Source: an uncultured Acidobacteriota bacterium (GTDB taxonomy: Bacteria > Acidobacteriota > Vicinamibacteria > Fen-336). Taken from it: a stretch of 64,000 bases of DNA. Position 1 is the stretch's first letter, and every line of letters begins with the position of its first letter. The notes under the pieces were generated by a model that saw nothing but the letters and a program-made list of their open reading frames with translations, did not search any database and was not told the origin of the DNA. The stretch is taken from the NCBI GenBank assembly GCA_963732935.1, contig CAVTBK010000004.1, positions 258,327 to 322,326 on the forward strand. The letters run 5' to 3'. This document shows positions 22,302 to 59,388 of the stretch, in pieces. The translations under genes were made by a program, and so were the position numbers.

Positions 22302-22398
22302 GCGCGAGGACAACGTGCGCATCGGTCCCGGTCGCGGTGGCCGTCGGTCCAATCGAAACCGGAGGTGCTAGAATGCCGTCTCGCTTCAGCCCAGCAGA

Positions 22399-23857: not shown

Positions 23858-24092
23858 GCCCGACCCCCGCCGCTCTCCTGGCTGCTCGGCGTCTGCGGCG
23901 CGCTGGTCGCATCGCCCGTCGAGGGAGCCCGACTCCGCGTGAAGGAGGTGACTCCGGAGCTGGCGGCGGCGAAAGCGGGCCTGGATCCCGGCGACGTGCT
24001 GCTGAGCTGGCGGCAGGGCGCCGGAAGCGGGAGCGCTCGCCTCGCCGCTCGACCTGCTGGAGATCGAGATCGCACGCGGACCTCGCGGCCCG

Positions 24093-27149: not shown

Positions 27150-27393
27150 CTCCCGGCCCCATCATTTGCGGCGTCCGGCGCGCAGTCGACTATCCTGGTG
27201 GAGCAGCGACGGGTGCCTGTGCCCTGGCAGCGGAAGGGGGTCGCGCATGATGTGGGTCGCCTCGATCAAGACGCGCCGCGTCGCCGTTTCTGCGCTCGCG
27301 GCCCGACTACACGACCGAGATCCTCCGCACGAGCCGGTCGGGCATCTCGGTGAGCTGCCGGGTCCGCTGAGCGGCCCGGCGGAGGTCCCCCTC

Positions 27394-28861: not shown

Positions 28862-28885
28862 AATCCTTCCTGCGGGAGGTAACGC

Positions 28886-32340: not shown

Positions 32341-32717
32341 GAACGACTCCTCATCTAATGTGGTGATCGCAATCAACTATACGCCAGGAGCACTCGGGCA
32401 GCGGCGCCTGCTCCGACCCGTGCAGAGTCGCCTCGTGGGATGCTTCGCCGCCCACCGGGGCTCGTCCCGCGACGTTGCCCCGCGCTGTCCATCTCGGCAT
32501 GCCGCCGAGCCTTGCCTTCGTCCAGACCGACCCCGGACGCCGGTCGTCCTCCAGTCCCGCGAGCGAGAGCGAGGTGAGCCCCGCAGGGGTGCTCCAGTCG
32601 GCCGGGCAGACCACGACCGGCCGGAGCGCGTCCTCGGCGCGCACGGCTGCGTGCGACACTGCGGGGTCGCCTCGCAAGCTGGGGCTCGGCTGTCCCCGAG
32701 CATGCGCTGCGGTGATC

Positions 32718-34313: not shown

Positions 34314-34333
34314 GCCCACCTCAGTGTGTTCTG

Positions 34334-35161
34334 CTAGCCCATCTCGTTGACCAGCGTTCCGATCGGCCCGATCGTGATCCGCACCGCGTCACCGCGCCGG
34401 AGGCAGAACCGCCCGGGCGGAACGATCCCCGTTCCCGTCATCAGGAAGCAGCCGACGGGGAAGGCGTTGTCGCGGAAGAGATACGCCACCAGTCGCGCCA
34501 GCGGCTTGCGCAGCTCGGAGAGCCGCGTCTCTCCCCGGAAGATCGTTCGACCGGCACGGCGGATGCCGAGGGAGATCCGCGTCGTGGGCGGCAGGGGCGC
34601 CTCCGCGATCAGCAGCCCTGGACCGATGGCAGCGCAGGCCTCGAAGGTCTTGGCCTGCGGGAGGTAGAGAGGGTTCTCTCCCTCGAGGTCGCGGCAGCTG
34701 AGGTCGTTCCCGACGGTGTAGCCGACGATGCGGCCGCGGCTGTTGACGGCGAGCGTCAGCTCGGGCTCGGGGACGATCCAGCCCGAGTCGCGCCGGAGAT
34801 GCATGGTGCCGCCGGGACCGACCACCCGGTGGGGCGTCGCCTTGAAGAACAGCTCCGGGCGGTGCGCCCGATAGATGTGGTCGTAGAAGCTGCTGCCGCC
34901 GGCGTCCTTCGACTCGGACATGCGCGCCGTGCGGCTGCGCGCGTAGGTCACGCCCGCCGCCCAGACCTCCTGACCGCCGATGGGAGCGAGCAGCCTGGCC
35001 TGCCGCGGGAGCCGCCGGAGCGGCTCCGCGGAGCGGACCGTGGCGCGCAGGAACGCCGGCAGCGCGCGCCGGTTGAAGAGCGCGTCCCAGTCGCCCGGCA
35101 CGCGATGGTAGCGACCCTCCTGCTCGACGAAGATGCCGGCGGACGAGCGGTAGAGAATCAT
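34334..35161 (-). CDS. Fumarylacetoacetate hydrolase (FAH) family protein; candidate 2-keto-3-deoxy-pentonate dehydratase (XylX/KdxD-like) by context
   Basis: Start [16 protein letters not shown] (ATG 35161). FAH-fold motifs …[11 protein letters not shown]…, …[19 protein letters not shown]…, …GTGIVPPG…. Follows the dehydratase gene with a 1-nt gap. The track ORF carries a spurious 102-codon N-terminal extension. Confidence 0.8.
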
Positions 35162-35162
35162 C

Positions 35163-37136
35163 TCACTGCCCCCGCGGCTTCCTGCCCGTCGCGAGGGCGG
35201 CGAGGATCGCGTCGACGTCGTAGACGCACCCACCCCATGTCCCCCCGCCGACCTCCTGGAGCGCCGCCCACAGTCGCGTATCGTCCGGGAGTCCGGCGTG
35301 CGGCGCGAGGTCGGCGCGCTGCGGCCGGCGTTCGAGCTCGCCCGCCCCCCACTCGGCGCCAAGCACGTCACCGTCACTCCCGACCAGGTCCAGCCGTGCC
35401 TCGAGCGTCCTGCGATCGATGACGATCTCCACCAGGTCTCCGTCGCGCAGGCGTCCGATCGGACCACCCGCCAGGGCCTCGGGGGAGACGTGTCCGATGC
35501 ACGCGCCGCTCGAGACGCCGGAGAAGCGCGCGTCCGTGACGATCGCCACCTGCTTGCCCCACGGGAGGTGCTTCAGGGCGGAGGTGAGCTGGTAGGTCTC
35601 CTCCATGCCCGTGCCCATCGGGCCGCAGCCGGCGAGGATCAGGATGTCACCGGCCTTGACGGCCTCGGGGCCGCGGGACTTGAGGGCCGCGATCGCCTGC
35701 TCCTCGCTCGTGAAGACGCGCGCGGGACCCAGCTTGCGATAGACGCCGTCTTCGTCGACGACACCAGGATCGATGGCGGTGCTCTTCACCACCGCGCCCT
35801 GCGGCGCGATGTTCCCGACGGGAAAGGCCACCGTGCTGGTCAGGCCCGCGCGTCGGGCCGCGTCGGGATCCAGGATGACCGTGGCCGGATCGACGCCGTC
35901 CTGCTCGACCAGGAGGGCCTTGAACCGGCGACGCCGCTCGGACCCTTCCCATTCGTCGAGCACCTCGCCCAGCGGCCGTCCGAGCGCGGTCAGGCACTCG
36001 AGCTCGAGCAGCCCGAGCCGCCTCAGGTGGAGCATGACCTCGGGCACGCCACCGGCCAGGAAGACGCGCACCGTGGGATGCAGTACCGGGCCGTTCGGGA
36101 TCACGCTCACCAGGCGCGGGACCTCGCGGCTGACCTCGACCCACTCCCGGACCGTCGGCCGAGGGAGCCCGGCGGCATGCGCCACCGCCGGCAGGTGCAG
36201 GATCAGGTTGGTCGAGCCGCCGAATGCGGCATGGACGACCATGGCGTTGCGAACCGCGCGCTCCGTCAGGACCTGCTTCACGGCCACGCCGGCCGCTTCG
36301 TTGCGCACGACCGCGCGCGCCGACTGCCTGGCGATCTCACGCCAGACCTCGAAGCCCGACGGCGCCAGGGCCGAGTGCGGCAGCGAGAGGCCGAGCGTCT
36401 CCCCGACTACCTGCGAGGTCGCGGCGGTGCCCAGGAACTGGCAGCCTCCGCCGGCCGAGCCGCAGGCGCGGCAGCTCAGCTCGGCCGCCTGATCGAGCGA
36501 CACCAGGCCGTGCGCGTAGCGCGCTCCGAGCGTCTGCGCGGCGCCGGCGTCCTCGGCGCCCCTGGCCGGCAGGGTGACGCCTCCCGGCACGAGAACGGCC
36601 GGAAGCTCCCGGCATCCGGCGAGGGCCATCATCATCGCGGGATGGCCCTTGTCGCAGGTGGCGACCCCGATGAGACCACGCCGGGTCGGGAGCGAGCGAA
36701 CCAGGCGGCGCAGGACGATCGCCGCGTCGTTGCGGTACGGCAGGCTGTCGAACATCCCCGTCGTACCCTGCGTGCGGCCGTCGCACGGGTCGCTGCAGAA
36801 GCCGGCGAAGGGCACGCCGCCCTGCGCCTCGATCTCGCGTGCGGCGGCCTCCATCAGCAGACCGACCTCCCAGTGCCCGGTGTGGTAACCCAGCGCGACC
36901 GGCGTGCCGTCCGGCGCGCGGATCCCGCCCAGCGTGCTCAGGATCAGGAACTCCTTGCGGCCGAAGCCCACAGGGCTCCAGCCCATGCCGACGTTCTGCG
37001 TCCAGCCGAAGAGCTCGCCGCTGGGCCGGCGCAGCAGCGCGTCCTCGCTGACGGGCAGCCGGCCCTGAGGGCCGGCGCCCGTGGTGCGCAGCTCGTAGAC
37101 CGAGTCGCCGACGGCGTCGAAGAAGGGCGAGTCCAT
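35163..37136 (-). CDS. IlvD/EDD-family sugar-acid dehydratase, 657 aa (YjhG/YagF xylonate-dehydratase-like length)
   Basis: Start MDSPFFDAV (ATG 37136). IlvD/EDD motifs …[16 protein letters not shown]…, …[10 protein letters not shown]…, …[24 protein letters not shown]…. The track ORF adds a ~270-codon false N-terminus. Confidence 0.9.
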
Positions 37137-37150
37137 GGACGCGTCCCGAG

Positions 37151-38551
37151 CTAGGGGGCGGCGGCGGGCGCCATCGGAAAGACGAGCGCCAGCAGGACCG
37201 TGACGAGGACGCCCGTCAGGCCGACCGAGGTGGAGAGGACGGTCCAGGTCTTGAGCGTCTCGGCCTCGCTCAGGTTGCCCATCTTGGAGAAGATCCAGAA
37301 GCCGCTGTCGTTCATCCAGGTGCCGATGAGCGAGGCGGAGGAGATACCGAGCGCCAGGTAGACGGGATGGTATGGCAGCGAACCGCCGGCGGGCACCAGG
37401 GCGGCGACCATCGCGGAGGTCGTGAGCATGGCCACCGTGCTCGAGCCCTGTACCATCTTGAAGAGGCTCGACATCGCCGCGCCGAGAAGCAGCAGCGACA
37501 GGCCGCCGGTCGCGCCCCCGGAGCGGAACAGGGCCTCTACCGCGGAACCCACGTGCGCCAGGCGCAGCATGGCACCGAAGGCCCCGCCGGCGGCGGTGAT
37601 GAGGATGATGACACCGCCGCTCATCAGCGACTGCTCGACCAGCTCGGCCATCCGGTCGCGGCCCGGCCGTCGCTTCCAGTAGACGAGACCCAGGGCGACG
37701 ACCGCGGAGGCCAGGAGGGCCAGGTTGGGGTCGCCGACCAGACCGGCGAAGGCCGCCAGCGAGGCCGGCACGCTCACGCCGCGGGCGGAGAGCATCGAGA
37801 TGACGGTATTGCCGGAGATGAGGACGATCGGGAGAGCGATCGGGAGCAGGGAGAGCCCGAGGGAAGGCAGGCTGTCGTCCGCGATCGGCGTCGGCTCGGC
37901 CTCGACACCCGGCAGGGGACGATACTCGATGCCCAGCCAACGGTCGACCCAGGCCGAGACCAGGAGGCCGACCAGAGCCGCCGGGACCGCCACCACCAGA
38001 CCGACCAGGATCATCGTCCCGAGATCGACGCCCAGGTTGGAAGCCACGGCCAGCGGTCCCGGCGTGGGCGGCACCAGCGCGTGCGTGGCGGCCGCCCCCG
38101 CGGCGATCGCCATCAGGTAGCGCACGTAGTGCCGGCCGACCCGGCGCGTCATCGAGCGCGCCAGCGGCAGCAGCAGGTAGAAGACGGTGTCGTAGAAGAC
38201 CGGGATGCTCAGCACGAAGCCGCTGCCCATCATGGCCACGTCCCCGCGCTTCTCGCCCAGCGCGCGCAGAAAGGCGCGGACGATCCGGTCGGCGGCGCCG
38301 CTCTCGGTCATGGCGCGCCCAATCACCGCGGCAAGCGCGATCACGATGCCGATGCTGCCAGCGGCCGAGCCGAAGGCCGTGGCCACGCGCGCGCCCTTCT
38401 CCGCCGCCGCGCCAGGAGCGAGCAGGCTCACGACCAGGGCCGCGATGACGAGGGCCAGGAAGGCGTTCACGCGAGCCACGACGATCAGGCCCACGACGGT
38501 CACGACTCCCGCGCCCAGGATCAGCCAGGGATTGACGAGCGGCTCGCCCAC
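37151..38551 (-). CDS. GntP-family gluconate/sugar-acid:H+ symporter
   Basis: 12-14 TM helices; the N-terminal region aligns with GntP (…[15 protein letters not shown]…[30 protein letters not shown]…). GTG start at 38551 without an obvious SD, so the start is uncertain. Confidence 0.85.
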
Positions 38552-38648
38552 GATCTGGGCACTATGTCACGCGCTCCCGGCGAGGGGCAACAATCGGGCC
38601 GCTGCTGGAGGCACGGCCTGCCGCCGCGCGTGCTGCCGTCGCCCCCGC

Positions 38649-43609: not shown

Positions 43610-44965
43610 ATGGCCCAGAGACTCCCGGTCAAAGAGAAGGTCGGCTACGCACTCGGCGACATGGCCGCCAATTTCGTGTTCCAGTTCATGATCGCCCTGC
43701 AGCTGGACTTCTACACCCACACCTTCGGCCTCACACCGGCGCAGGCGGGGACCATGCTGGGCGTCGTCGGCCTGGGCGTCGCCGTGCTCAACCCGGTGAT
43801 GGGCGTGATCGCCGACCGGACCACCAGCAGGTGGGGCAAGTTCCGGCCCTGGGTCCTGTGGAGCGCGCTCCCCTTCGGCATCATCGGCGTTCTCACCTTC
43901 ACGACGCCTGATCTCAGCCTCGGCGCCAAGGTGATCTACGCCTGGGTGACCTACACCGCGCTGCGCGTCGTCTACATCATCAACAACGTGCCCTATGCCT
44001 CGCTGACCGCCGTGATGACCGAAGACCCGGACGAGCGGACCAGCATCTCCTCGTACCGCCAGATCGCGGCGAACACCGCCGGCCTCATCATCGCCAGCTT
44101 CGTCATCCCGCTGGTCGGCATCCTCGGCCGGGGTAACGACGCGCGCGGGTATCAGCTCACGATGGGGCTGCTCTCGGTGGTGAGCGTCGTCTTCTTCGTC
44201 ATCACGTTCCTCGTCGCCAAGGAGCGCATCCAGCCCGATCCGCAGCAGAAGAGCTCGCTCGCCCTGGACATGTCGGACTTGTTCAGCAACAAGGCCTTCG
44301 TCATGCTGTTCATGGCAACGCTCTTCTACTTCACGGCGATCCTCATCCGCGGCAACGTGATGTTGCCGTACTTCCGCTTCGTCTCGGGCAAGGTGAACGT
44401 CTACTCCTGGTTCAACGGATTCGGCCTTGGTTCGCTGCTCCTGGGCGTCGCCTGTTCGACGCCGGTCTCGATCCGCGTGGGCAAGCTGCGACTCTTCCAG
44501 GTCAGCATGATCCTCACGGGCGTCTTGTCGATGGCGCTCTACGTCCTGCCACCGACGGGGACGATCGCAATCGTCGCCACGGAATCGCTGCGCCAGTTCT
44601 CGTTCGGCCTTTCGGGACCGATCCTGTGGGCCATGATGGGCGACGTGGCCGACTACGGCGAGTGGAAGACGGGCCGGCGCGCCAGCGGCACCGTCACCTC
44701 GGCCGTCGTGTTCGCGCTCTGGGCGGGACTGGCACTCGGCGGCGCTGCCGCCGGCTGGCTGCTCGGGGCCTACGGAGTGGTCTCGGACGCCGCAACGCAA
44801 ACACCGACCGCACAGTCGGGCATCGTGCTCACCGGCAGCATCTATGCGGGTCTGGCCTTCCTGGCGGCGGCCGCCTTCCTGTTCCTCTATCCACTGTCCG
44901 GCGAGAAGGCCAGGTCGATCGCCGACGAGCTGACGGAGCGCCGCAAGTCCTTTGCGCAGAGCTAG
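43610..44965 (+). CDS. MFS transporter, glycoside-pentoside-hexuronide (GPH):cation symporter family
   Basis: ATG 43610 (AGGAAAGAGGAACG upstream). 12 TM helices. GPH N-terminal motif [27 protein letters not shown]… and …[18 protein letters not shown]…. Confidence 0.9.
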
Positions 44966-45008
44966 TCGTTCGCCTCGGGAAGCAAGAGAAAGACGGACGG
45001 AGGAAACG

Positions 45009-47277
45009 ATGTCGAAACGCCTGTCCTGCCCCATCGGGTTCAACGCCCAGCATTCCCCGATGGGCGCCTTCATGAGCTTCACCTGTGGCCATCCCGGAAC
45101 CAAGGGCGGCATCGGGCTGCAGATCGGGCAGCCGGCCGACCAGGAGGTCTTCGTCGGGCTGGTCGACGGCGACCGCTACGCCGACGCGCCGCTCCAGAGC
45201 CTGCCCTTCTACATAGGGGCGGTCAGCAAGGCCGCCGAGGCCTTCACGGTGGAGCAGGCCGGACCGTCGGAGGCGAACGTGAGGCCCGACGCAGTGCCGT
45301 TCAAGCTCGAGGAGATCGAGCGGCGCTACGGCTGGTGCACGGACACCTGGCGGGCCGGGGACCTGACCTTCACGGTCTACACGCCCTTCGGCTCGATCGC
45401 CGATCCGAAGCGGGCGAGCACCCAGAAGATGCGCGACGCGCTGCGGCCGGCGGTCGTGGCGCAACTCGTCGTCGACAACACGAAAGGGACCAGGCCCAAG
45501 ACCGGCATCTTCGCGCTCAACCACTCGCGGACCGGCCCGCGGATGATCACCGACGACCTGGGACGGAAGAACCGCGTCGGCTTCGCCTTCCGCCGCGAGG
45601 CGGGTGTCGCCGCCGAGGTGTTCGACGTCACGTCACGCAAGAAGGCGGCCGGGCCGCAGCCCTTCGGCTTCATGCGCTGGTCGGCGACCGACGGCATCCG
45701 GGAGCGCTACAACCCGGTGCACCTCCTGGGATCCTGCCCGGGCGTCGGGTTCGAGGTGCCGCCCGGCAAGCGCTACGCCATGGTGCTGGCCATCGGCTCC
45801 TACCTCGAGTGCCCGGTGACCACCGGGCTCGACGGGCGCTACCTCTACACCCGCTACTACGAAGACCTCAACGACGTCCTGCGCTCGACGCTCGATAGGG
45901 CCGACGCGCTCGTGGCCGCCGCGGAAGCGCTCGACGCGAAGCTCGACGCGGCCAAGCTGTCCGACGACCAGCGTTTCATGATCGCGCACGCCACGCACAG
46001 CTACTACGGCTCGACACAGCTGCTCGAGATCAACCGCCAGCCCTTCTGGGTGGTGAACGAGGGCGAGTACTGCATGATGAACACGCTCGACCTCGCGGTC
46101 GACCACGTGTTCTGGGAGCTCGACCGCAACCCCTGGCTGGTGAGGAACCTGCTCGACAGCTTCGTGCGGCTCTACAGCTACCGGGACGAGATCAAGACCT
46201 ACAAGGCAGAGGCAGAGCTGTCGTCGCACGCGATGGACCACGATCCCTCGGAGCCTCCGCCTCCGCCCGACGCGGCGCAGCTGGCCCGGCCTTTCGAAAA
46301 GAAGCCGGGAGGCATCAGCTTCTGCCATGACATGGGCGCGCACAACAACTTCGCGCCAAAGGGTCGGTCGAGCTACGAGCTCGCCAACCTGACCTCCACC
46401 TTCAGCTACATGACCGTGGAGCAGCTCTGCAACTGGACGCTCACCGCCGCCTGCTACCTGGCGAAGACGCGCGACACGGCGTGGCTGAAGAAGAACCAGA
46501 AGGTCATCCGGGACTGCCTGACCAGCATGATCAACCGCGGGGGCGAGGTCGGCTTCGCGCAGTACGACTCTACCAGGACGGCGGGCGGCCAGGAGATCAC
46601 GACCTACGACTCGCTCGACCACTCGCTGGCACAGACGCGCAACAACGTCTACATGGCCGTCAAGAGCTGGGCAACCTATCACGCCCTGGCTCTCTTGTTC
46701 CGCGATCTCGGCGACAAGGCGACCCAGCAGAAGTGCCGGAAGCTCGCCGAGACGGTCGCGGGCGTCGTCGCCGAGCAGGCTGTGGACGGTGTGCTCCCCG
46801 CCATCTTCGAGAAGTCGAACCCCGGCTACAACTCGCGCATCCTGCCGGCGGTGGAAGGCTGCGCCTATCCGCTGTACTTCGTGAAGACGGGCTATCAGCG
46901 GCAGACTCTCGATCAGGTCTTCGGCACGCCGGCCGAGAAGAAGATGTACGACGTGCTCAAGGAGCACACGCGCAGGCTGCTGCTCGATCCCCAGCGGCGC
47001 AGCGTGTTCGCGGACGGCGGCATCAAGCTGTCCTCGACCAGCAACAACTCGTGGATGAGCAAGATCTCGATCTTCATGCACGTGACGCGGCAGCGTCTTC
47101 CGTCTCGACCAGGATCCGGGCGTGGTCGAGGTCTTCCGCAAGGCCGACGCGGCTCACGTGAAGTGGCAGGTCGAGGGCAGCGCCTACTGGGCCTGCTCGG
47201 ACCAGATCGTCTCGGGCGAAGGCAAGGCCAGCCGGTACTATCCGCGCATCATCACCAGCGCGCTCTGGATGGAGTGA
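45009..47277 (+). CDS. GH52-family beta-xylosidase (cytoplasmic); apparent 1-nt frameshift near 47090
   Basis: ATG 45009 (GGAGG). Strong co-linearity with Geobacillus XynB2-type GH52: NAQHSPMGAFMSFTCG, TDTWRAGDLTFTVY, LSDDQRFMIAHATHSYYGSTQLLE, WVVNEGEYCMMNTLDL, GGISFCHDMG, SSTSNNSWMSKI. The final ~60 aa (…VFRLDQDPGVVEVFRKADAAHVKWQVEGSAYWACSDQIVSGEGKASRYYPRIITSALWME*) are read in the +1 frame. Confidence 0.8.
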
Positions 47278-47285
47278 CGGCCACC

Positions 47286-48437
47286 ATGCAGATGCGTCGC
47301 ACCCTGACGTGGTCGCCCGGCCTGCTGCTGTGCGCCGCGACAGCGCTCGTGGCCGTGTCCGCCGCCGCTGAAACGCCAGCGCTCAAGGACGTGGCGCCGC
47401 AGGGCCTGCGCATCGGGGCGGCGCTCAGCCAGACCCAGAGCGACGGGCTCGACCCGGTCGCGCTCCGGATCGTCAGCCGCCAGTTCGACACGATCAGCCC
47501 GGAGAACCTCCTCAAGTGGGAGTCGGTGCACCCCGAGCCGGGGCGCTACGACTTCGGCCCCGCGGACCGTTTCGTGAGCTTCGGCACCAGCCGCGGGATG
47601 TTCGTGGTGGGCCACGTGCTCGTCTGGCATCAGCAGACGCCCGCCTGGGTCTTCGCCGGGGCGGACGGCAAGCGGGCCGACCGCGAGACGCTGCTCGCCC
47701 GCCTGCGCGACCACATCGCGACCGTGGTCGGCCGCTACCGCGGGCGAATCGGCGGCTGGGACGTCGTCAACGAGGCGCTCGAGGACGACGGCAGCCTGCG
47801 CAAGAGCCCCTGGCTCGCTGCGATCGGCGAGGACTATCTGGCCCAGGCCTTCGCGGCCGCGCACGCGGCGGATCCCGGGGCGGAGCTCTACTACAACGAC
47901 TACAACCTCTGGAAGCCGGCCAAGCGCGACGCCGCGGTGCGCCTGGTGGCGCGCCTGCGGGAGCAGGGCCTGCGCGTCGACGGCATCGGCGAGCAGGGTC
48001 ACTGGGGCATCGACGACCCGCCGCTCGGCGCAATCGACGCGGCCCTCGCCGCGATCGTGGCGAGCGGGACGAGGGCGCTCGTGACCGAGCTGGACATGGA
48101 CGTGCTGCCGCGGGACCCCGACATGTGGGGGGCCGACCTCGCCAAGAAGGCCAAGCTCCGCGCGACCACGAACGTCTACCCGGACGGCCTGCCCCCGGCC
48201 GTGGAGCAGCAGCTCGCCCGCCGCTATGCGGACGTCTTCCGGCTCTTCCTCAAGCACGGCGTCGCGCGGGTCACTTTCTGGGGAGTCAGCGACGCCACCA
48301 CCTGGCTCGACGACTTCCCGATCCCGGGCCGCGTGAACTACCCCCTGCTCTTCGATCGCTCCGGTCGCGAGAAGCCGGCGTTCCACGCCGTCCTGGACGT
48401 CCTCGAGAAGAGATCGGCAGGAGACGCGGCCCGCTGA
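47286..48437 (+). CDS. GH10 endo-1,4-beta-xylanase with signal peptide
   Basis: ATG 47286. Signal peptide …[16 protein letters not shown]. Catalytic acid/base WDVVNEA and nucleophile region VTELDMD. Confidence 0.9.
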
Positions 48438-48438
48438 C

Positions 48439-49683
48439 ATGCGCATTACCGACCTGCGTGCGACGCCCGTCTCGGTGCCGCTCGCGGCGCCGTTGCGCCA
48501 CGCGAACGGCTGCCACTGGGGGCGCTTCGTGCGCACGATCGTGGAGCTCGCGACCGACGAGGGCCTGGTGGGACTCGGGGAGATGGGTGGTGGCGGGGAG
48601 AGCGCAACCGCGGCGCTCCTGGCCCTGAAGCCGTACCTGCTGGGCCGCGACCCGGCCCGGCTCGAGGAGATGCGCTTCCTGCTCGCGAACCCGACGGCGT
48701 CGCTCTACAACAACCGCACGCAGATCGTGGCGGCCCTCGAGTTCGCCTGCCTGGACCTGCTCGGGCAGCGCTGGGGGGTTCCCGTCTCGGAGATCCTGGG
48801 CGGCCGGGTCCGGGAGCGGGTACCGTTCGCCTCCTATCTCTTCTTCCGCTACCCGCACCCGCGCACCGGCGAGGGCGAGGTGCGCACCGTCGCTCAGCTG
48901 GTCGCCGAGGCGCGCGCCCTCAAGGAGCGCCACGGCTTCACCACCCACAAGCTCAAGGGCGGCGTCTTCCCGCCCGAGTACGAGCTGGGCTGCTACCGGG
49001 CGCTGGCCGACGCCCTGCCCGACGACAGCCTGCGCTTCGACCCGAACGGCGTCTGGTCCGTCGAGCAGGGGATCTGGTTCGGACGCAGGATCGAGGATCT
49101 CCGCAACGACTACCTCGAGGATCCTGTGTTCGGCCTCAACGGCATGCGCCGCGTGCGCCAGAAGCTGCGCCTGCCGCTCGCCACCAACACGGTGGTCGTC
49201 AACTTCGAGCAGCTCGCCGCCAACGTGCTCTCGACCGCGGTCGACGTGATCCTGCTCGACACCACCTTCTGGGGAGGCATCCGTCCCTGCCTCAAGGCCG
49301 CCGCCGTCTGCGAGACGTTCCAGCTCGGCACGGCGGTGCACTCCTCGGGCGAGCTCGGGATCCAGCTCGCGACCATGCTCCACCTGGGCGCGTGCGTCCC
49401 GAACCTGACCTTCGCGGCCGACGCCCACTATCACCAGCTGCTCGACGACGTGATCGAAGGGGGTGCGATCCCCTACCAGGGCGGCTCGATCGCGGTGCCG
49501 ACCGGCCCGGGCCTCGGTGTCCGGCTCGATCGCGAGAAGCTGGCGCGCTACCACGAGGAGTTCCAGCGGCTCGGGTCCTATCCCTACGACCAGGACCCGC
49601 TGCGGCCGGGCTGGACGCCCCTGGTTCCGAACGACCGCTGGGCCGATCCTGACGACGACCGGGTTCCGGAGGTGCCGTTCTGA
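48439..49683 (+). CDS. Enolase-superfamily acid-sugar dehydratase, glucarate dehydratase (GudD/GudX)-like
   Basis: ATG 48439, 2 nt after the GH10 stop. Glucarate-dehydratase-like blocks [38 protein letters not shown]. Its stop overlaps the GH67 start (TGATG). Confidence 0.8.
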
Positions 49684-51884
49684 TGCTCCGCAACCTGTAC
49701 CACGCCTCCCTCACGGCCCTGGTCGCCTTCGCCGCCCTCGCCGCATCCGCGCCGGTGCGGGCCGAGGACGGCTACGAGCTATGGCTGCGCTACCGTCTCG
49801 TGTCCGACCCCGCCCGGGTCGAGGCCTATCGCGCGGCTCTCACGCAGCTGCTGCTGCCTGGTGAATCCCCCACCCTGCGCGCCGCGCGCGAGGAGCTGCG
49901 ACGCGGACTGGGCGGGCTGCTCGGAGCGGAGATCGTCGACGTGTCGAGCCTTCCCGGGCGCGACGGGCACGACCAGGACGCGAAGGGCGTGCTGGTCGTG
50001 GGCACCAGGCAGAGCTGCCCCGAGATCGCGGCACTCGACCTCGACGACGCCCTCGCGCGCGCGGGCCGCGAGGGTTTTCTGCTCCGCAGGACGAGCGTCC
50101 GCGGCACCCCCGTGACGTTGGTCGCCGCCAACACCGAGATCGGCGTCCTCTACGGCGCCTTCGCGCTGCTGCGGCGGGTCGCGACCGAGAGCCCGCTCGA
50201 CGTCCTCGACCAGGTCGAGGCGCCGCGCATCCAGCATCGCCTGCTCGACCACTGGGACAACCTCGACCGCACGGTCGAGCGCGGCTACGCGGGCTGCTCG
50301 CTGTGGGACTGGTTCAAGCTGCCCGACTACCGCGAGCCCCGCTACACGGACTACGCGCGGGCGAACGCCTCGATCGGGATCAACGGCGCGGTGCTGAACA
50401 ACGTCAACGCCGACGCCATCAGCCTGACCCACCCGTATCTGGCGAAGGCGGCGGCCCTGGCCGAGGTCTTCCGGCCCTACGGCATCCGGGTCTACCTGAG
50501 CGCCCGCTTCAGCGCCCCGGTGGAGATCGGCGGGCTCACGACGGCCGACCCGCTCGATCCCGCCGTCGCGTCCTGGTGGAAGCGGAAGGCGGACGAGATC
50601 TACCGCCTGATCCCCGACTTCGGCGGTTTCCTGGTGAAGGCGAACTCGGAGGGGCAGCCCGGGCCGCAGGACTACGGCCGCAGTCACGCGGACGGCGCCA
50701 ACCTGCTCGCCGACGCGCTCGCGCCCCACGGCGGCATCGTGATGTGGCGGGCCTTCGTCTACTCGCACGAGGTACCGGAGGACCGGGCCAAGCAGGCCTA
50801 CGACGAGTTCCACCCGCTCGACGGTGCCTTCCGGCCGAACGTGCTGGTGCAGGTGAAGAACGGCCCCATCGACTTCCAGCCGCGGGAGCCCTTCCACCCC
50901 CTCTTCGGCGCCATGCCGAAGACGCCGCTCGCGCTCGAGCTGCAGATCACCCAGGAGTACCTGGGCTTCTCGACCCACCTCGTCTTCCTGGCGCCGCTCT
51001 TCGAGGAGGTGCTGCGAGCCGACACCTTCGCCCGGGGCGAAGGCTCGACCGTGGCGAAGGTGGTCGACGGCTCGCTCGAGGGCCACCAGTTGACGGGCAT
51101 CGCCGGCGTCGCCAACGTGGGCAGCGATCGCAACTGGTGCGGTTCGGTCTTCGCCTGCGCCAACTGGTACGCGTTCGGCCGCCTGGCCTGGGACCCGGGT
51201 CTGGCGTCCGCGACGATCGCCGACGAGTGGCTGCGCCTGACCTTCACCAACGATCCCGCCTTCCTGGCGCCCGCCGCGGGGATGATGCTGCGCTCCCGCG
51301 AGGCGGCGGTCGACTACAGGACGCCGCTCGGACTCGTTCACCTGATGGCGCGAGGGCACCACCACGGCCCGGGGCCCTGGGTGAGCGGAGGTCCCCGCCC
51401 CGACTGGACCTCCGTCTACTACCACCGCGCGGACGCGGAGGGGATCGGCTTCGACCGCACCGCCACCGGCAGCGACGCGGTCGCCCAGTACGCCCCGCCG
51501 GTCCGCGACGAGTTCGCCAGCCTGGACCGCTGCCCCGAGAAGTACCTGCTCTTCTTCCATCACGTTCCCTGGGACTACCGCCTTCGGTCGGGTCGGACCC
51601 TGTGGGACGGACTGGTCGACCACTACTACCGGGGCGTCGAGGAGGTGCGGGCGATGCAGGCGACCTGGGACTCGCTGGCCCGGTTCGTCGACGCCGAGCG
51701 CTACCGGCAGGTGCGCGTCTTCCTGGGGATCCAGGAGCGCGAGGCCCGCTGGTGGCGTGACGCCTGCGTGCTGTACTTCCGGACCTTCTCGAAGCGCCCG
51801 GTCCCCGCCGGCTACCCCGCACCGGCCGGGACCCTGGAGCAGTACATGGCGATCGACGAGCGCTACGTTCCGGGGAGCCGGTGA
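49683..51884 (+). CDS. GH67 alpha-glucuronidase (xylan alpha-1,2-glucuronosidase) with signal peptide
   Basis: Signal peptide, then the hallmark DGYELWLRY; …VLVVGT…[20 protein letters not shown]…; central TIM-barrel region …[12 protein letters not shown]…. Confidence 0.9.
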
Positions 51885-52699
51885 GCGGCCTCCCGAGCTT
51901 CGACCTCGCGGACCGGGTCGCCGTGGTCACGGGAGGCTACGGAGTCATCGGCGGCAGCCTGGCCGACGGGCTCGCCGCTGCCGGCGCGAAGGTCGCGGTC
52001 CTGGGCCGCAGCCGGGAGGCCGCCGAGGCGAAGGCCGCGGGCCTCCGGCGCTCGCGTGCCTCGTCCCTCGCCCTCGTGGCCGACGTGCTCGATCGCGCCG
52101 CGCTCGAGGCCGCGCGCGAGGCCGTCCTCGCGGCCTGGGGGCGCCTCGACGTGCTGGTCAACGCGGCGGGCGGCAACGTCCCGGACGCCCGGACCGACGA
52201 CACGCCGGTCTTGACGCTGGACCTGCCCGCCTTCGACGCCGTCGTCCAGCTGAACCTCAACGGTGCGGTGCTGCCGACGCTCGTCTTCGGCGAGGCGATG
52301 GCCCGCCAGCGCAAGGGCAGCATCGTCAACATCTCCTCGATGGCGGCGAGCCGTGCCCTCTCCGGCGTCCCCGGCTACTCGGCGGCCAAGGCCGGCATCG
52401 AGAGCTTCACCCGCTGGCTCGCCGTCGACCTCGCGCGTCGGTGCGGCCCCGAGCTGCGCGTCAACGCGGTGGCGCCGGGCTTCTTCCTCGCCAGCCAGAA
52501 CCGCGACGTGCTGATGAAGCCGGACGGCTCGCTCAGCGCGCGGGCGGAGGCGATCCTGGGCCACACGCCCATGCGCCGCTTCGGGGAACCGAGGGAGCTG
52601 CAGGGCGCCGTCGTCTGGCTCGCCAGCGAGGCATCCTCGTTCGTCACGGGCGCGGTCATCGCGGTCGATGGAGGCTTCAGTGCAGACACCGGAATCTAG
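51881..52699 (+). CDS. Classical SDR-family oxidoreductase (candidate uronate or fructuronate/mannonate dehydrogenase by context)
   Basis: GTG 51881 overlaps the GH67 stop (GTGA). [26 protein letters not shown] (TGxxxGxG), NAAG, catalytic YSAAKAG (YxxxK). Confidence 0.85.
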
Positions 52700-53741
52700 G
52701 CGGCAGGCGGCCCTGGAACGCTTCCTGGTCGCCGCGCGCGGCGGGCGGCCCGATCAGGTCCCCACCGCCCTCATCGTCGACAGCCCCTGGCTGCCCGGCT
52801 TCGTGGGGATGGACACGCGTGACTTCTTCCTCGATCCCGCGCTCTGGCTGGCCGCTCACCTGCGGATCGCCGAACGCTTCCCTGACGTGGTCTTCCTGCC
52901 CGGTTTCTGGGTGGAGTACGGCATGGCCAACGAGCCGGCGGCCTTCGGCGCTCGGCCGCTCTGGCAGGCCGATACCCCGCCCCCGCTCAGACCGATCGAC
53001 CTGCCGGTCGAGCGCTGGGGCGAGCTGCCGCGGGTCGATCCGGAGACGGACGGTCTTATGCCCTTCGTGCTCCGCCGCATGGAACGGCTGGAGCGCGGCG
53101 AGCTGCCCGAGCCCCACCGAGCGCACTTCGCCGCCGCCCGGGGGCCGCTCGCGGTGGCCAGCCATGTCCTGGGGATGACCCCCTTCCTGGAGGCGACGGC
53201 CGCCGCGCCCGACGCGGCACGGGCGGCCCTCGACGTCTTCACCGACACGGCGATCGCGTTCCTGCGCGCGCAGCTCGAGCGCCTGCGGGAGCCGCTCGGC
53301 ATCCTCCTGCTCGACGACGTGGCCGGACTCCTCTCCCCGAGGGGCTTCGACAGCCTCGCCCTGCCCTGCCTGCAGCGGGTTCTCGACGCCTTCCCGGGCA
53401 AGGTCCGCATCTATCACAACGACACGCCCTGCCCGCACCTGCTCTCCCGGATCGGTCAGCTGCACTGCGAGGTCTGGAATCTCAGCCACGAGCTGGACCT
53501 GGGCGAGGTGCGCGCCGCGGTCGGGCCGGGGATGGCCCTGATGGGCAACGTCGCCCCCCTCGACCTCATGGTTCGGGGAACGCCCAAAGAAGTCTCTGAC
53601 GCTGCACGCGCTTGTATCGCCGATGGGGCGTCGAGCGGGGCCTTCGTCCTCTCGGCGGGGGGCGGCCTCTCCCCGGGAACGCTCGCGGAGCACATCGATG
53701 CTCTCGTGGACGCTGCCCGCCTGGGCCTGGCGGCCGAATGA
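52668..53741 (+). CDS. Uroporphyrinogen-decarboxylase (URO-D) superfamily protein, MtaA/CmuA-like; function in this locus unknown
   Basis: …[35 protein letters not shown]… N-terminus and overall length typical of URO-D-like (beta/alpha)8 proteins. Start 52668 overlaps the SDR gene by 32 nt. Confidence 0.7.
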   Translation: MEASVQTPESRRQAALERFLVAARGGRPDQVPTALIVDSPWLPGFVGMDTRDFFLDPALWLAAHLRIAERFPDVVFLPGFWVEYGMANEPAAFGARPLWQADTPPPLRPIDLPVERWGELPRVDPETDGLMPFVLRRMERLERGELPEPHRAHFAAARGPLAVASHVLGMTPFLEATAAAPDAARAALDVFTDTAIAFLRAQLERLREPLGILLLDDVAGLLSPRGFDSLALPCLQRVLDAFPGKVRIYHNDTPCPHLLSRIGQLHCEVWNLSHELDLGEVRAAVGPGMALMGNVAPLDLMVRGTPKEVSDAARACIADGASSGAFVLSAGGGLSPGTLAEHIDALVDAARLGLAAE

Positions 53742-53765: not shown

Positions 53766-53807
53766 CCGCCCGGGCGTCTCGGGTGGCCGCCCGGGCGTCT
53801 CGGGTGG
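53766..53807. repeat. Perfect 21-bp tandem duplication CCGCCCGGGCGTCTCGGGTGG x2 just downstream of the URO-D-like gene
   Basis: Direct reading of 53766-53786 and 53787-53807. Followed by the inverted repeat GGAGTCGCC (53812-53820) / GGCGACTCC (53840-53848). Confidence 0.8.
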
Positions 53808-53906: not shown

Positions 53907-53950
53907 CACATCGCGAACAAAGCCGTGATGCGGTTTCACATCGCCAACAA
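53907..53950 (+). promoter_or_regulatory. Direct repeat CACATCGCGAACAA / CACATCGCCAACAA (30-bp spacing) upstream of the TonB-receptor promoter: candidate activator/repressor site
   Basis: 53907-53920 and 53937-53950; 13/14 identical; sits in the most AT-rich island of the window, immediately 5-prime of the -35 box. Confidence 0.4.
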
Positions 53951-53955
53951 TGATG

Positions 53956-53985
53956 TTGACATCCCTCCCGTCCTCGACCTATAAA
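53956..53985 (+). promoter_or_regulatory. Sigma-70-like promoter candidate TTGACA-N18-TATAAA for the TonB-dependent receptor gene
   Basis: TTGACA 53956-53961, 18-nt spacer, TATAAA 53980-53985, ~90 nt upstream of ATG 54076. Confidence 0.5.
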
Positions 53986-54018
53986 GCCGTGCTTTTGTCC
54001 CTGTCCGGGACGAAATCA

Positions 54019-54048
54019 TTCGCGTCCGCAAATTTCGCGTCCGCAAAT
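54019..54048 (+). promoter_or_regulatory. Perfect tandem 15-bp direct repeat TTCGCGTCCGCAAAT x2 between the -10 box and the RBS: candidate operator
   Basis: 54019-54033 and 54034-54048, located ~35 nt downstream of the -10 box and 28 nt upstream of the start codon. Confidence 0.45.
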
Positions 54049-54075
54049 AAGGTTGGCAGACTAGGGAGGCTGAGA

Positions 54076-57000
54076 ATGGACTTTATCCGTGGCTTCCGCT
54101 TGGCGGCGGTGGCGGCCCTGGTGGGGCTGCTGGTGCTGGCGGGCGGAACGTCGATACAGGCGCAGACGACCAGCGCGTCGGTGTCGGGCACCGTCAAGGA
54201 CTCCCAGGGAGGGGTCCTGGCCGGCGCGACCGTGACGCTGACGAGCCGCACCCAAGGCAGCACGCTGACGGCCATCGTGAACAGCGCCGGAAGCTTCGCA
54301 TTCCCGATCGTGCGTCCGGACACGTACACGCTCCGGGTGACGATGGAAGGCTTCAAGACGCTGGAGCGCGACAACCTGGTGGTCAACGCGAACGACCGGC
54401 TCTCCGCCGGCAACCTGGTCCTCGAGGTCGGCTCGCTCACCGAGAGCGTCACCGTTTCCTCGCGCGTCAGCGAGCTGCAGTCGACTAGCGGTGAGCGCTC
54501 GTACACCCTGGAGAGCGAAGCGATCAGGGACATCGCCTCCAACTCGCGCCAGTTGTTCAACTACGCGCTGCTCGTCCCTGGCGTCGTCTCCACCGACACC
54601 AACGCCGGCACCGAGCGGACCCAGGTGTCCAGCATCGTCGTGAACGGCCAGCGGGAGACCTCCAACAACGTGACGGTCGACGGTGTCGCCAACATCGACA
54701 CGGGCGACAACGGCGGCAACATGGCCGTCACCAACACCGAGGCCATCGCCGAGTTCAAGGTCCTGACGAGCTCGTACCAGGCGGAATACGGACGCGCGGT
54801 CGGCGGGCAGGTGCAGATGGTGACCAAGAGCGGGACCCAGTCCTTCCACGGCTCGGGTTACTGGTTCGGCCGCCGCTCCGGCTGGAACGCCAACAGCTGG
54901 ACCAACAAGCGTGCCGGGGCGCCTGCGCCGGTCGGCAACGGCGCGGTGATCGAGCCACCGACGGCCACGCGTGACGACTTCGGTTTCACGATCGGCGGCC
55001 CGATCTACATCCCGGGCCTCTTCAACACGGACAAGAAGAAGCTCTTCTTCTTCTGGAGCGAGGAGTTCCAGAAGCGCAGCAGCCCGCCGTCGCAGCGCAC
55101 GGCGCGCGTGCCCACCGCCCTCGAGCGGGCAGGGGACTTCTCCCAGAGCGTCGACAACAGCGGCAACCCCTATCCCTACATCCGCGACTACACGACCGGC
55201 CTGCCCTGCAACGCCAGCGATACCCGCGGCTGCTACCAGGACGGCGGCGTCGTCGGTAAGATCCCCGCGAGCCGCCTCTATGCTCCCGGCCTCGCCGCGC
55301 TCGGCCTCTTCCCCTCGCCGAACTACACCTCCGGCGGCGGCGTCAACTACACGAGCCAGGACTCGGACAGTTCGTCACCGCGTTCGGACCTGATCCGGCT
55401 GGACTTCCAGCCCAGCGACAACTGGCGCGTCACCGGCCGCTACATGCAGACCAAGAACGACACCACCCAGGCGTACGGCACCCCCTGGGCCGGTAACGGC
55501 AGCTACCAGGTCCCGATGGCAGTGCTCTTCAAGAACCCCGGCTACAACTTCATGGTGAGCACCAGCGGCATCCTCAACAACTCGACCTCGCTCGAGCTGA
55601 GCGTCGGGACCGCGCACAACTCGCTCAACTACGAGATGCAAGCCCAGCAGCTGTACCGGGCGAACTCGGGGCTCAGCGACTTCCCCTACCTCTATCCGGA
55701 CGCCGTCCAGGCCGACTACGTCCCGTTCTTCCAGTTCGGCGGCACGAACATCGGAAACCAGGCCGAGTACCAGACGAACAACGGCCCGTTCGCCAACTAC
55801 AACACGACCTGGGACGTGGTCGCGAACCTGACGAAGATCTGGGGAGCGCACAACTCCAAGTTCGGCATCTACTTCCAGAGCAGCAAGAAGCCCCAGACGA
55901 TCTTCTACAGCTTCAACGCCCAGGTGGACTTCGCCGGCAACCCGAGCAACCCCTACGACACGAGCCTCAGCTACGCCAACGCGGCGACCGGGGTGTTCAA
56001 CACCTACACCCAGGTCAACAAGTACTCGATGCCGAAGTGGGAGTACAAGAACCTCGAGTTCTACCTCCAGGACAACTGGAAGGCCAGCTCCAGGCTCACG
56101 CTCGACTACGGCGTGCGCTTCTACTACATGACGCCGCAGTGGGACGTGGATAAGGGCGTCTCGAACTTCCTGCCCGACAAGTACGACCCCAGCAAGGCCG
56201 CGCAGCTCTACGCCCCGGCCATCGTCAACGGCGTGAAGGTCGGGCGCGATCCCGCCACGGGCCAGACGGTCGACGCGCGCTTCATCGGCCGGCTGACCCC
56301 GGAGTCGGACCGGTTCAACGGAGCCTTCGAGGCCGGCCAGGGGATCTCCGACACGGTGCAGAGCGGGAGCGTCTTCAAGGTGTCTCCTCGCCTCGGCTTC
56401 GTGTTCGACCTCACTGGGAAGGGCGACACCATCGTCCGCGGGGCCGGCGGGATCTTCTACGACCGCCCGATGGGCAACATCGACTTCGACATGGGCGGCA
56501 ACGCGCCGAGCGTCCTGAACTCCACCCTCCAGTGGGGGCAGCTGCAGAACCTCAGCGCTGCGCAAGGGGACCCCAACGCGCCGCTGTCGCTGTCCCCGAC
56601 CGCCTACGACTTCAACCCTCCCAAGGTCTACGCCTGGAACATCGGCCTGCAGCAGAAGCTGCCGGGCAAGGTGATCTTCGACATCGCCTACGTCGGCTCC
56701 TCGTCGAAGAACCTGGTGCGCAGGTCGCAAATCAACTCGCCGGCGCTGGGCGCCACCTTCGACCCGGCCAACCAGGACCCGACGAAGCCCGCAAACCTCA
56801 ACGGGAGCTCCGCGCTGCCCACCGACTTCCTGCGGCCCTACCCGGGCTACTCCAACATCAATGCCTATGACTACTCGGGCTTCTCGAGCTACAACTCGCT
56901 GCAGACGTCGGTGCAGCGGCGGTTCGACAACGGGTTCATGTTCGCGGTCTTCTACGTCTGGAGCAAGAACCTCACGACCAACACCTCGGACTACACCTCA

Positions 57001-57680
57001 GACGGAGTGCCCGGGGGCGTCGTGGGCGACCACGCCACGATCAGGCAGTACGACTACTCGTATTCGAACTGGGACCGCCCGCACAACTTCGTCATCAACG
57101 CCATCTACCAGACGCCGAAGGTGACCGACAACGCTGCGCTCGGTCTCCTCGTGAACGGGTGGCAGCTCTCGGGGGTCTACCGCTTGACGAGCGGTCAGGC
57201 CTACCCGATCACGTACGCGATCTCCGGCGTCTCCAACGACAACCTGACCGGCACGAGCATGCCTGCCGCCCGCATCGTCGTCACCTGCGATCCGGGCGGC
57301 GGCACGAGCAGCGATCCTTACAAGCAGTTCGACACCTCGTGCTTCGCTCCGCCGCAGCCGGGCAGCAACGGCAACGAGTCGGCCCGGCGCTTCATGCACG
57401 GGCCGTGGACCAACAACCTCGACCTGTCGATCTCCAAGTCCTTCACGTTCTACAAGGACCTGAAGCTCGAGGTGCGCCTGGACGCCTTCAACGCGCTCAA
57501 CCACACCCAGTTCACGGGCGTCAACGCCAATGCCAACTTCAACAGCACGAGCGACCCCACGATCACCAACCTGCCCTACAACTCGGCCGGGGCAATCTGG
57601 TCAACGTCAACGGGTTCGGCGCCATCAACGGTGTGGCATCCCCGCGGACGATCCAGCTGGTCACGCGGCTGACGTTCTAG
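54076..57680 (+). CDS. TonB-dependent outer-membrane receptor-like protein with an N-terminal CarboxypepD_reg domain (Acidobacteria type); apparent 1-nt frameshift near 57588
   Basis: ATG 54076 (GGGAGG). Signal peptide, then CarboxypepD_reg …VSGTVKDSQGGVLAGATVTLTSRTQG…RPDTYTLRVTMEGFKT…, a plug-like region, and a very long beta-barrel. The expected C-terminal …GNLVNVNGFGAINGVASPRTIQLVTRLTF* is in the +1 frame from ~57590. Confidence 0.8.
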
Positions 57681-57796
57681 AAGCAGCCTGATCGTCGACT
57701 GTACCTGGGGTCGGCGCTCGTCCGGAACGAGCGCCGGCCCCATTTCCTTCTCGGCGCGACCGCAGCGCCGATCCACTGTAGAATCGCCGGACGGTG

Positions 57797-59316: not shown

Positions 59317-59388
59317 CGTGGCGCGCGCGCGAGGACGGCGACCCTTTCGCTCGCCCTGGCCCTGCTGCCGGCCGCCGGGCTCGCCCTG

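Follow-up and report, generated by a model that had tools for sequence, protein, structure and literature searches.

Hardwood xylan carries 4-O-methyl-D-glucuronic acid (MeGlcA) as its main acidic side chain, and we know of no enzyme that acts on the methyl ether of MeGlcA. What becomes of the methyl group once a bacterium has released this sugar acid is the question raised by the locus analyzed here, the distal half of a glucuronoxylan-utilization operon from a Vicinamibacteria-like acidobacterium. The operon lies within a 64-kb stretch of DNA of about 71% GC (hereafter the window), whose nearest relatives are metagenome-assembled genomes of Vicinamibacteria. Four of its genes are central to the question: an enolase-superfamily acid-sugar dehydratase (ENOL), a GH67 alpha-glucuronidase, a short-chain dehydrogenase/reductase (SDR), and a UroD-superfamily protein (UROD), where ENOL and UROD are names used here. 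Comparison with related loci points to UROD as a candidate methyltransferase I, which would pass the methyl group to a corrinoid, and to ENOL and SDR as likely steps of an isomerase-type uronate pathway.

Organization of the Operon

The operon runs on the + strand from 43.6 to 57.7 kb in the order MFS_2-GH52-GH10-ENOL-GH67-SDR-UROD, followed by a TonB-dependent receptor (Table 1). The open reading frames (ORFs) of ENOL, GH67, SDR, and UROD are all present and carry the strong third-position GC (GC3) that marks coding genes in the window. A single nucleotide separates the GH10 stop codon from the ENOL ATG (TGAcATG), ENOL and GH67 meet in TGATG, GH67 and SDR meet in GTGA, and SDR and UROD overlap by 20-32 nt; a database copy of UROD begins 4 codons later, with GTG at 52680. 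A terminator scan found no terminator-like site at 48.4-53.9 kb and placed a strong terminator 3′ of the receptor gene (57706-57742). Since the junctions touch or overlap and no terminator intervenes, ENOL, GH67, SDR, and UROD are read as co-transcribed. This bears out what a first-pass annotation of this DNA had described: the four genes, the order in which they stand, and their transcription together with GH67. A promoter scan returned nothing beyond shuffled expectation. Judged by inspection, the N-terminus of GH67 looks like a Sec signal peptide (...ASAPVRA/ED), and by its domains the protein is of the enzyme type that releases MeGlcA from xylo-oligosaccharides.

UROD Is a UroD-Fold Protein Distinct From HemE and MtaA

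The first-pass annotation had placed the last gene of the operon nearer to MtaA/CmuA than to HemE, and the curated NCBIfam models agree with this placement. UROD scores 93 bits against PRK06252 (cut-off 244), 72 bits against TIGR01463 (mtaA_cmuA; cut-off 235), and 65 bits against MtaA_Meth (cut-off 400), versus 42 bits against the hemE model TIGR01464 (cut-off 303), to which only its C-terminal half aligns. The gene is thus not a bona fide hemE, and the matches to the MtaA models also stay below their cut-offs. The methylcobamide:CoM methyltransferases MtaA and CmuA are nevertheless the best NCBIfam and Protein Data Bank (PDB) sequence matches of UROD. Upon alignment to MtaA (PDB 4AY7), the zinc-binding His is kept as H250, whereas the two Cys ligands are replaced by D252 and G332, a state that is invariant in 84 family members. 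UROD therefore lacks the zinc ligands H-x-C...C, while a separate paralog in related loci (UROD2, URODc) keeps them. Identification as HemE or as MtaA is rejected on the curated cut-offs and the zinc ligands, which leaves UROD as a UroD-fold protein outside both families.

The AlphaFold2 (AF2) model of UROD is a TIM barrel (pLDDT 84, pTM 0.88). In a Foldseek comparison with the PDB, MtaA and HemE are equally good matches to this model (TM 0.73-0.77, about 0.75 overall and 0.76 for 4AY7), and the two families are not separable in this way. Though HemE shares both Pfam family and fold with UROD, the context of UROD is carbohydrate catabolism, not heme synthesis. Across the 84 members, 26 positions of the active site vary little or not at all. 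The invariant residues lie at the C-terminal strand ends of the model; besides polar or acidic side chains there are two Trp and one Arg among them, and they include D38, E83, R158, D216, D217, H250, D252, H274, and N294. At the mouth of the barrel they form the conserved cluster H250-N-D252-x-x-C255-x-H257. All 26 positions are the same in the window UROD and in every member found in a corrinoid context (described below), and because of this identity the family is taken to be isofunctional.

UROD in Hexuronate Operons of Two Phyla

UROD has more than 2000 homologs, many at 65-84% identity, and its relatives are found in 432 species-level genomes, mostly of Vicinamibacteria and Chloroflexota (Anaerolineae) and also of Armatimonadota and Actinomycetota. 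Retrieved related loci are given L-numbers and homologous proteins P-numbers; the context of UROD was counted in 83 loci. The row ENOL-GH67-[SDR]-UROD occurs in L001, L002, L004, L006-L008, L010, L012, L016, and L039, and L084 resembles it but is without ENOL. Because this arrangement recurs in at least 10 independent loci of Vicinamibacteria/Acidobacteriota, it is not attributed to chance. Genes for uxaC and/or uxaE are present in 38 of the 83 loci and GH67 in 11. The commonest neighbor is uxaC (31 loci), which is usually the next gene, while in Vicinamibacteria it is GH67. In Chloroflexota, UROD (about 50% identity) is usually followed directly by uxaC, uxaE, and a UxuB-type SDR, in operons that also hold an Opp-type ABC transporter, LacI, an oligogalacturonate lyase, and a LarA-like protein. 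A profile search found the Bh0493-type uronate isomerase in none of the UROD loci. UROD is tied to hexuronate catabolism in two phyla.

Some Chloroflexota hexuronate operons contain three URO-D paralogs (L021, L022, L027, L045, L052, L080, and others). Among these paralogs, UROD and URODb have the motif H-x-D and URODc has the MtaA-like H-x-C...C, and the operons also carry NagA-like, NagB-like, AKR, GFO, and LarA-like genes. A 467-aa UROD homolog, P0115, was considered as a domain fusion and rejected, as its tail is a low-complexity stretch rich in Arg, Gly, Pro, and Ser that resembles an out-of-frame translation.

Corrinoid Genes Beside Some UROD Family Members

A gene for a corrinoid protein, a pterin-binding methyltransferase, or the activase RACo lies within 10 kb of UROD in nine of the 83 UROD loci (L003, L015, L017, L033, L037, L061, L076, L077, and L080), compared with none of the 84 loci fetched through ENOL, which serve as the carbohydrate-locus control for this count. 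The gene order in L033 is GFO / AKR / UROD / B12-binding corrinoid protein / Pterin_bind / UxaC / URO-D paralog / CE15 / UxaE. In L015 and L017, where UROD is 65-67% identical to that of the window, the order is UROD / DUF1638 / RACo / Pterin_bind, and in L076 the corrinoid protein, UROD, Pterin_bind, and RACo genes are adjacent to each other. In L003, which has SusD-type genes of a polysaccharide-utilization locus (PUL) and is taken to be from Bacteroidota, UROD is followed by a B12-binding protein with the DxHxxG motif and by an MtaA-like URO-D protein with H-x-C...C. Wherever a pterin-binding protein serves as methyltransferase II, no candidate for methyltransferase I other than UROD is left.

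Fused proteins point in the same direction. An exhaustive homolog search of 1.8 billion representative proteins returned remote UROD homologs (27-31% identity) fused to a B12-binding domain, namely P0467 (615 aa), P0451, and P0497, and in P0473 (750 aa) a UroD-like domain is fused to both pterin-binding and B12-binding domains. The H-N-D motif is kept in P0467 and P0473. By their predicted domains, these two proteins combine two or three components of a corrinoid methyltransferase system in one polypeptide. CmuA is likewise a fusion with a corrinoid domain (PMC13222342). In addition, O-demethylase and dehalogenase systems are known to draw their methyltransferase I from the UroD superfamily, whose representatives in this role include both zinc-containing and zinc-free enzymes (PMC13222342). 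The UROD family is thus probably one of corrinoid-dependent methyltransferases, for which methylation of Co(I) is the expected reaction.

In Vicinamibacteria, UROD might instead act without a corrinoid and supply the missing first step, for example as a uronate isomerase, epimerase, or decarboxylase of a new kind. This would be in keeping with the absence of isomerase and corrinoid genes from the window and about 12 related Vicinamibacteria loci, and with a TIM-barrel fold that, in the model, has a possible metal site. However, UROD adjoins a normal uxaC in Chloroflexota, and SDR-ENOL-GH67 clusters that have no UROD are likewise without an isomerase. A role as isomerase substitute is rejected on these two grounds, and because of the adjacency to a normal uxaC, UROD is considered an addition to the isomerase, not its replacement. 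The active site is also identical to that of members inside corrinoid systems, the score against the hemE model is far under threshold, and we know of no sugar-acting decarboxylase or isomerase in the UroD superfamily. A corrinoid-free function is therefore quite improbable. Two roles had been raised for UROD in the first-pass annotation, and they fare differently: decarboxylation finds no support, while removal of the 4-O-methyl group gains comparative support from the corrinoid systems in hexuronate operons and the B12 fusions.

A search with the L003 corrinoid protein for relatives in Vicinamibacteria was uninformative, as the best 120 named matches were all from Chloroflexota. In Anaerolineae, a stand-alone corrinoid protein (L173:8001-8633) is found with no adjoining methyltransferase in a sugar-catabolic cluster of AKR, FGGY kinase, xylose-isomerase-like TIM barrels, and GFO genes, which hints that corrinoid proteins may be shared between several carbohydrate loci. 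To judge by eye, a 376-aa protein encoded next to this corrinoid protein resembles a secreted glycoside hydrolase; compared with four URO-D proteins, it showed no detectable similarity.

ENOL, SDR, and the Route of the Uronate

ENOL scores 160 bits against the glucarate dehydratase (GlucD) equivalog TIGR03247 (cut-off 829) and 86 bits against the mannonate dehydratase (ManD) equivalog NF043051 (cut-off 550). Its closest structures are 3VC5, 3VDG, 4IT1, and 3VA8; in the PDB these bear generic molecule names or "putative/probable glucarate dehydratase." Alignment to 3VC5 and 3VDG, together with motif position, identifies K171-x-K173, D201, E227, N250, D274, and H301, and we take the K-x-K motif, the Asp/Glu/Asn metal ligands, and the Asp-His dyad to be the GlucD-type catalytic set. 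ENOL is accordingly assigned by sequence to the GlucD subgroup of the enolase superfamily, and by score it is neither GlucD nor ManD. Membership of the ManD type, which would have counted against the first-pass annotation, is thus not seen, though the proposal of an aldarate dehydratase made there does not stand, given the distance from the GlucD cut-off and the company that ENOL keeps.

This company is conserved widely. ENOL shows 75-85% identity across Acidobacteriota, Gemmatimonadota, Rhodothermales, and Bacteroidota, and in the 84 ENOL loci, which come from several phyla, GH67 adjoins it in 58 and a UxuB-type SDR is present in 29. Directly after ENOL, 33 of the 84 loci encode a 430-aa protein that has no Pfam match and is an ortholog of the uronate isomerase Bh0493 (E = 1e-140 to PDB 2Q08/2QEE). 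Counting both the Bh0493 type and the UxaC type, a uronate isomerase co-clusters with ENOL in 34 loci. The order is ENOL-isomerase-SDR in L117, L162, and L170, and SDR-UxaC-MFS-ENOL in L124. Neither UxuA nor any further candidate for the dehydratase is conserved among the ENOL loci. Because ENOL stands beside GH67, uronate isomerases, and this type of SDR in the 84 loci, it is placed at the mannonate dehydratase step. Most likely, it fills the slot of UxuA or ManD as a mannonate (or 3-O-methyl-mannonate) dehydratase that belongs to neither family. ManD and UxuA would then be functional analogs of ENOL, with the same proposed beta-elimination at the carbon equivalent to glucuronate C4. GudD shares with ENOL the fold and the GlucD-type residues, but the context of ENOL consists of GH67, uronate isomerase, and UxuB-type SDR genes, not glucarate genes. 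The Bh0493-type isomerase genes are found in the range L098-L170, for example at L156:10880-12190.

The SDR passes the NCBIfam model PRK08277 (D-mannonate oxidoreductase) with 339 bits against a cut-off of 281, and the next family scores 182 bits; as PRK08277 is a subfamily model, passing it predicts the activity. The classical SDR motifs TGxxxGxG (residues 17-24) and YxxxK (residues 166-170) are present, and relatives of this SDR sit downstream of uxaC-uxaE in about 19 Chloroflexota loci. Since the Bh0493-type uronate isomerase is a conserved neighbor of ENOL, the simplest reading of the conserved context is that the uronate would be handled through the non-oxidative isomerase (Ashwell) route and not through an oxidative one.

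The first-pass annotation had favored an oxidative route, in which the SDR would act as uronate dehydrogenase, ENOL as aldarate dehydratase, and the FAH and KGSADH proteins encoded at 32-35 kb would lead on to 2-oxoglutarate. The best NCBIfam and PDB relatives of ENOL are indeed glucarate dehydratases, the GlucD residues including the Asn metal ligand are kept, no isomerase is found in the window, and an aldehyde dehydrogenase with weak similarity to 2,5-dioxovalerate/KGSA dehydrogenase is encoded 14 kb away. However, ENOL falls far short of the GlucD cut-off, the model that the SDR passes is that of mannonate oxidoreductase, and uronate isomerases co-cluster with ENOL. The uronate dehydrogenases characterized so far are, to our knowledge, SDRs of another class. 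A KdgD-type 5-keto-4-deoxyglucarate dehydratase was not seen, and the FAH protein and aldehyde dehydrogenase are rejected as uronate enzymes, as they are part of a self-contained Weimberg cluster for xylose, with a xylonate dehydratase, on the minus strand. An oxidative route is thus very unlikely, and a "glucarate dehydratase" and an SDR beside GH67 should not be annotated as an oxidative uronate pathway.

The absence of uxaC and uxuA, also remarked in the first-pass annotation, holds within the window: UxaC and UxuA (PF02614, PF03786) have no match on any window ORF with a coding signature, and neither a Chloroflexi UxaC sequence nor a profile of the Bh0493-type isomerase matches the window. 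As the Bh0493-type isomerase has no Pfam-A match, a Pfam-based finding of no uronate isomerase can be a false negative elsewhere.

Proposed Pathway for Methylglucuronate

In the proposed pathway, the exported GH67 would free MeGlcA, which would then be imported. UROD would bind MeGlcA before the isomerase step, and a Co(I) corrinoid protein would attack the methyl carbon to give glucuronate and methyl-Co(III). More speculatively, the conserved H250-N-D252-x-x-C255-x-H257 cluster may hold a metal by which the ether oxygen is activated. A pterin-binding (MeTr-type) methyltransferase II would move the methyl group to tetrahydrofolate, regenerating Co(I), and a RACo-type activase would keep the cobalt reduced by repairing oxidized cobalt. 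The corrinoid protein, methyltransferase II, and activase would be encoded elsewhere in this genome. Glucuronate would then be converted to fructuronate by an isomerase from outside the window, fructuronate to mannonate by the SDR, and mannonate to 2-keto-3-deoxygluconate by ENOL. MeGlcA is proposed as the substrate because of the adjacency of GH67 and uxaC and the co-occurrence of CE15, and this assignment for the present operon is a plausible suggestion that could readily turn out otherwise. The scheme as a whole, which joins the isomerase route to UROD as the MeGlcA corrinoid methyltransferase I, is likewise tentative and falls a little short of an even chance.

Several observations weigh against this scheme. 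Corrinoid protein, pterin-binding methyltransferase, RACo, and DUF1638 genes are all absent from the window and from about 12 Vicinamibacteria ENOL-GH67-UROD loci; for the corrinoid protein, a check of the whole window agrees with the first-pass annotation, which had seen none. An Rfam scan of the window detected no cobalamin riboswitch or other RNA, and about 90% of UROD loci have no corrinoid genes nearby. The isomerase that the route requires is not in the window, the substrate of ENOL is read from genomic context only, and Chloroflexota operons have up to three URO-D paralogs without assigned roles. The similarity of UROD to characterized methyltransferase I enzymes is negligible (CdmB, E = 0.03), and as a leaving-group system the aryl ethers cleaved by known O-demethylases are superior to an alkyl (sugar) methyl ether. 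Lastly, close homologs of UROD occur in carbohydrate loci without uronate genes (L003, L087, L085, L015), and the substrate may therefore not be MeGlcA.

Following this last point, UROD could be a corrinoid methyltransferase I for a different substrate, either another O-methyl sugar or a lignin-derived methoxy-aromatic that is freed along with glucuronoxylan. The homologs without uronate genes are 62-71% identical and are accompanied by GH2 and DUF4838 in the L003 PUL, by a sulfatase, GH5, and a fucosidase in L087, by a PfkB kinase and a RhaA-like isomerase in L085, and by an erythromycin-esterase-like gene in L015. CE15 esterases, moreover, link xylan and lignin, and the known substrates of methyltransferase I are aryl methyl ethers (PMC13222342). 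However, the commonest neighbor of UROD is uxaC and, in Vicinamibacteria, GH67, and its polar and acidic invariant residues and Arg would suit a sugar acid better than an aromatic compound. A substrate other than MeGlcA acted on in this manner is thus unlikely, though it deserves consideration.

It is also conceivable that ENOL itself removes the methyl group, by eliminating methanol from 3-O-methyl-D-mannonate or MeGlcA to form the normal 2-keto-3-deoxy product, with UROD as an accessory or unrelated protein. This could occur because the dehydratase step removes the substituent at the former C4 of glucuronate, which is the position of the methyl ether. Beta-elimination is an established mechanism of the enolase superfamily and would here be extended to methanol. 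Across Bacteroidota, Rhodothermales, Gemmatimonadota, and Acidobacteriota, the enzyme that consistently accompanies GH67 is ENOL and neither UxuA nor ManD, and UROD is absent from most ENOL-GH67 loci. On the other hand, the argument is a chemical one only, it demands that isomerase and reductase both tolerate a methylated substrate, and it leaves the conservation of UROD in the Vicinamibacteria operon and beside uxaC unexplained. Methanol elimination by ENOL is therefore considered improbable, and corrinoid-dependent demethylation by UROD is retained as the preferred pathway.

Relation to Known Systems

The methyltransferase I enzymes OdmB, VdmB, MtvB, MtoB, and CdmB of the UroD superfamily share the UroD-type TIM barrel with UROD, and their systems have a four-component neighborhood of methyltransferase I, corrinoid protein, pterin-binding methyltransferase II, and RACo like that found in some loci of the UROD family. 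UROD differs from these enzymes in its near-nil sequence similarity, its polar and acidic active site, and the alkyl (sugar) ether proposed as its substrate. It is also found in xylan and hexuronate operons instead of aromatic or C1 operons, and in the window it has no partner genes. A literature search for a methylglucuronate demethylase, for URO-D genes in hexuronate operons, and for a GH67-linked enolase found no prior description, and the only sugar O-demethylase that it returned is a P450 for 6-O-methyl-galactose (PMC6292453). In marine Bacteroidota, this P450 demethylates 6-O-methyl-D-galactose within a polysaccharide-utilization locus (PMC6292453), and formaldehyde is reported to form during use of the sugar (PMC9400963). 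The physiological task is the same, but the P450 belongs to an unrelated family and works oxidatively, whereas UROD would hand on the intact methyl group, first to a corrinoid and from there to folate.

UroD-fold methyltransferase I enzymes and enolase-superfamily dehydratases are thus both known, and the novelty lies in carbohydrates as a class of substrate and in the operon setting. A broader proposal is that the UROD clade is a widespread, unrecognized class of corrinoid-dependent carbohydrate O-demethylases, here converting MeGlcA to glucuronate with transfer of the methyl group to corrinoid and then folate; this is possible but doubtful, and we would sooner expect it to fail than to hold. 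The locus and its relatives provide two candidates that can be cloned: UROD with its corrinoid partners (e.g., UROD-CP-MeTr-UxaC from L033) and ENOL, which could eliminate methanol. Either of these, if true, would close a gap in hemicellulose catabolism and would be useful for complete conversion of glucuronoxylan. If the corrinoid route is true, it would extend B12-dependent O-demethylation from aryl ethers to carbohydrates, and hemicellulose methoxyl would feed the C1 metabolism of soil Acidobacteriota and Anaerolineae instead of remaining unused or being lost as methanol or formaldehyde.

Other Features of the Window

Table 1. Coordinates of the operon and of other annotated features in the 64-kb window.
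Feature	Position	Strand	Basis
CE15 glucuronoyl esterase and GH3, additional glucuronoxylan genes outside the operon	27241..31093	+	Pfam GCE_fung 113 bits; GH3 N, C, Fn3-like
Xylose oxidative (Weimberg-type) cluster	31237..38566	-	Pfam; NCBIfam TIGR03432
MFS_2 (GPH-type) sugar transporter, first gene of the operon	43610..44965	+	Pfam MFS_2 268 bits
GH52 beta-xylosidase, apparent 1-nt frameshift near 47085	45009..47277	+	Pfam Glyco_hydro_52 442 bits
GH10 endoxylanase with signal peptide	47286..48437	+	Pfam Glyco_hydro_10 300 bits
ENOL, enolase-superfamily acid-sugar dehydratase, glucarate-dehydratase subgroup	48439..49683	+	Pfam MR_MLE_N + MR_MLE_C
GH67 alpha-glucuronidase, exported	49683..51884	+	Pfam GH67 N, M, C domains: 81, 507, 310 bits
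SDR, UxuB-type fructuronate reductase / D-mannonate oxidoreductase	51881..52699	+	NCBIfam PRK08277
UROD, UroD-superfamily protein, proposed methyltransferase I	52668..53741	+	Pfam URO-D 127 bits
21-nt direct repeat, two exact copies (CCGCCCGGGCGTCTCGGGTGG)	53766..53807		208-nt UROD-TonB receptor spacer
TonB-dependent receptor (CarboxypepD_reg + Plug + OMP_b-brl_4)	53950..57672	+	Pfam

The C-terminal 64 residues of GH52 run on in the next frame up to the stop at 47277, and because of this frameshift GH52 and GH10 are read as a single ORF of 1161 aa (44952-48437). The frameshift is either an assembly error or the mark of a pseudogene. The MFS_2 type of gene is also found in the related loci L084 and L089, and the receptor type is also found in L002, L084, and many ENOL loci. 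The direct repeat in the spacer between UROD and the receptor gene may be a binding site for a regulator.

The Weimberg cluster looks complete and consists of genes for a Gfo6-like xylose dehydrogenase, an aldehyde dehydrogenase, a FAH-family protein, a YjhG/YagF xylonate dehydratase, and a GntP permease. Its dehydratase scores 1079 bits against the YjhG/YagF D-xylonate dehydratase model TIGR03432 (cut-off 808), and the top match of its GFO protein is XylDh_Gfo6 with 218 bits, under the cut-off of 350. Neither xylose isomerase nor xylulokinase genes were seen in the window; in other phyla, XylA and FGGY-kinase genes accompany ENOL-GH67. Unrelated to the operon, an ECF-type sigma factor, a zf-HC2 anti-sigma factor, and a 1048-aa TPR-CHAT protein are encoded in a row at 22372-27149. 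FG-GAP/ASPIC (UnbV) repeat proteins are encoded 3′ of the receptor gene (57782-64000) and likewise after the receptor in the related xylan locus L002 (L002:2742-4466).

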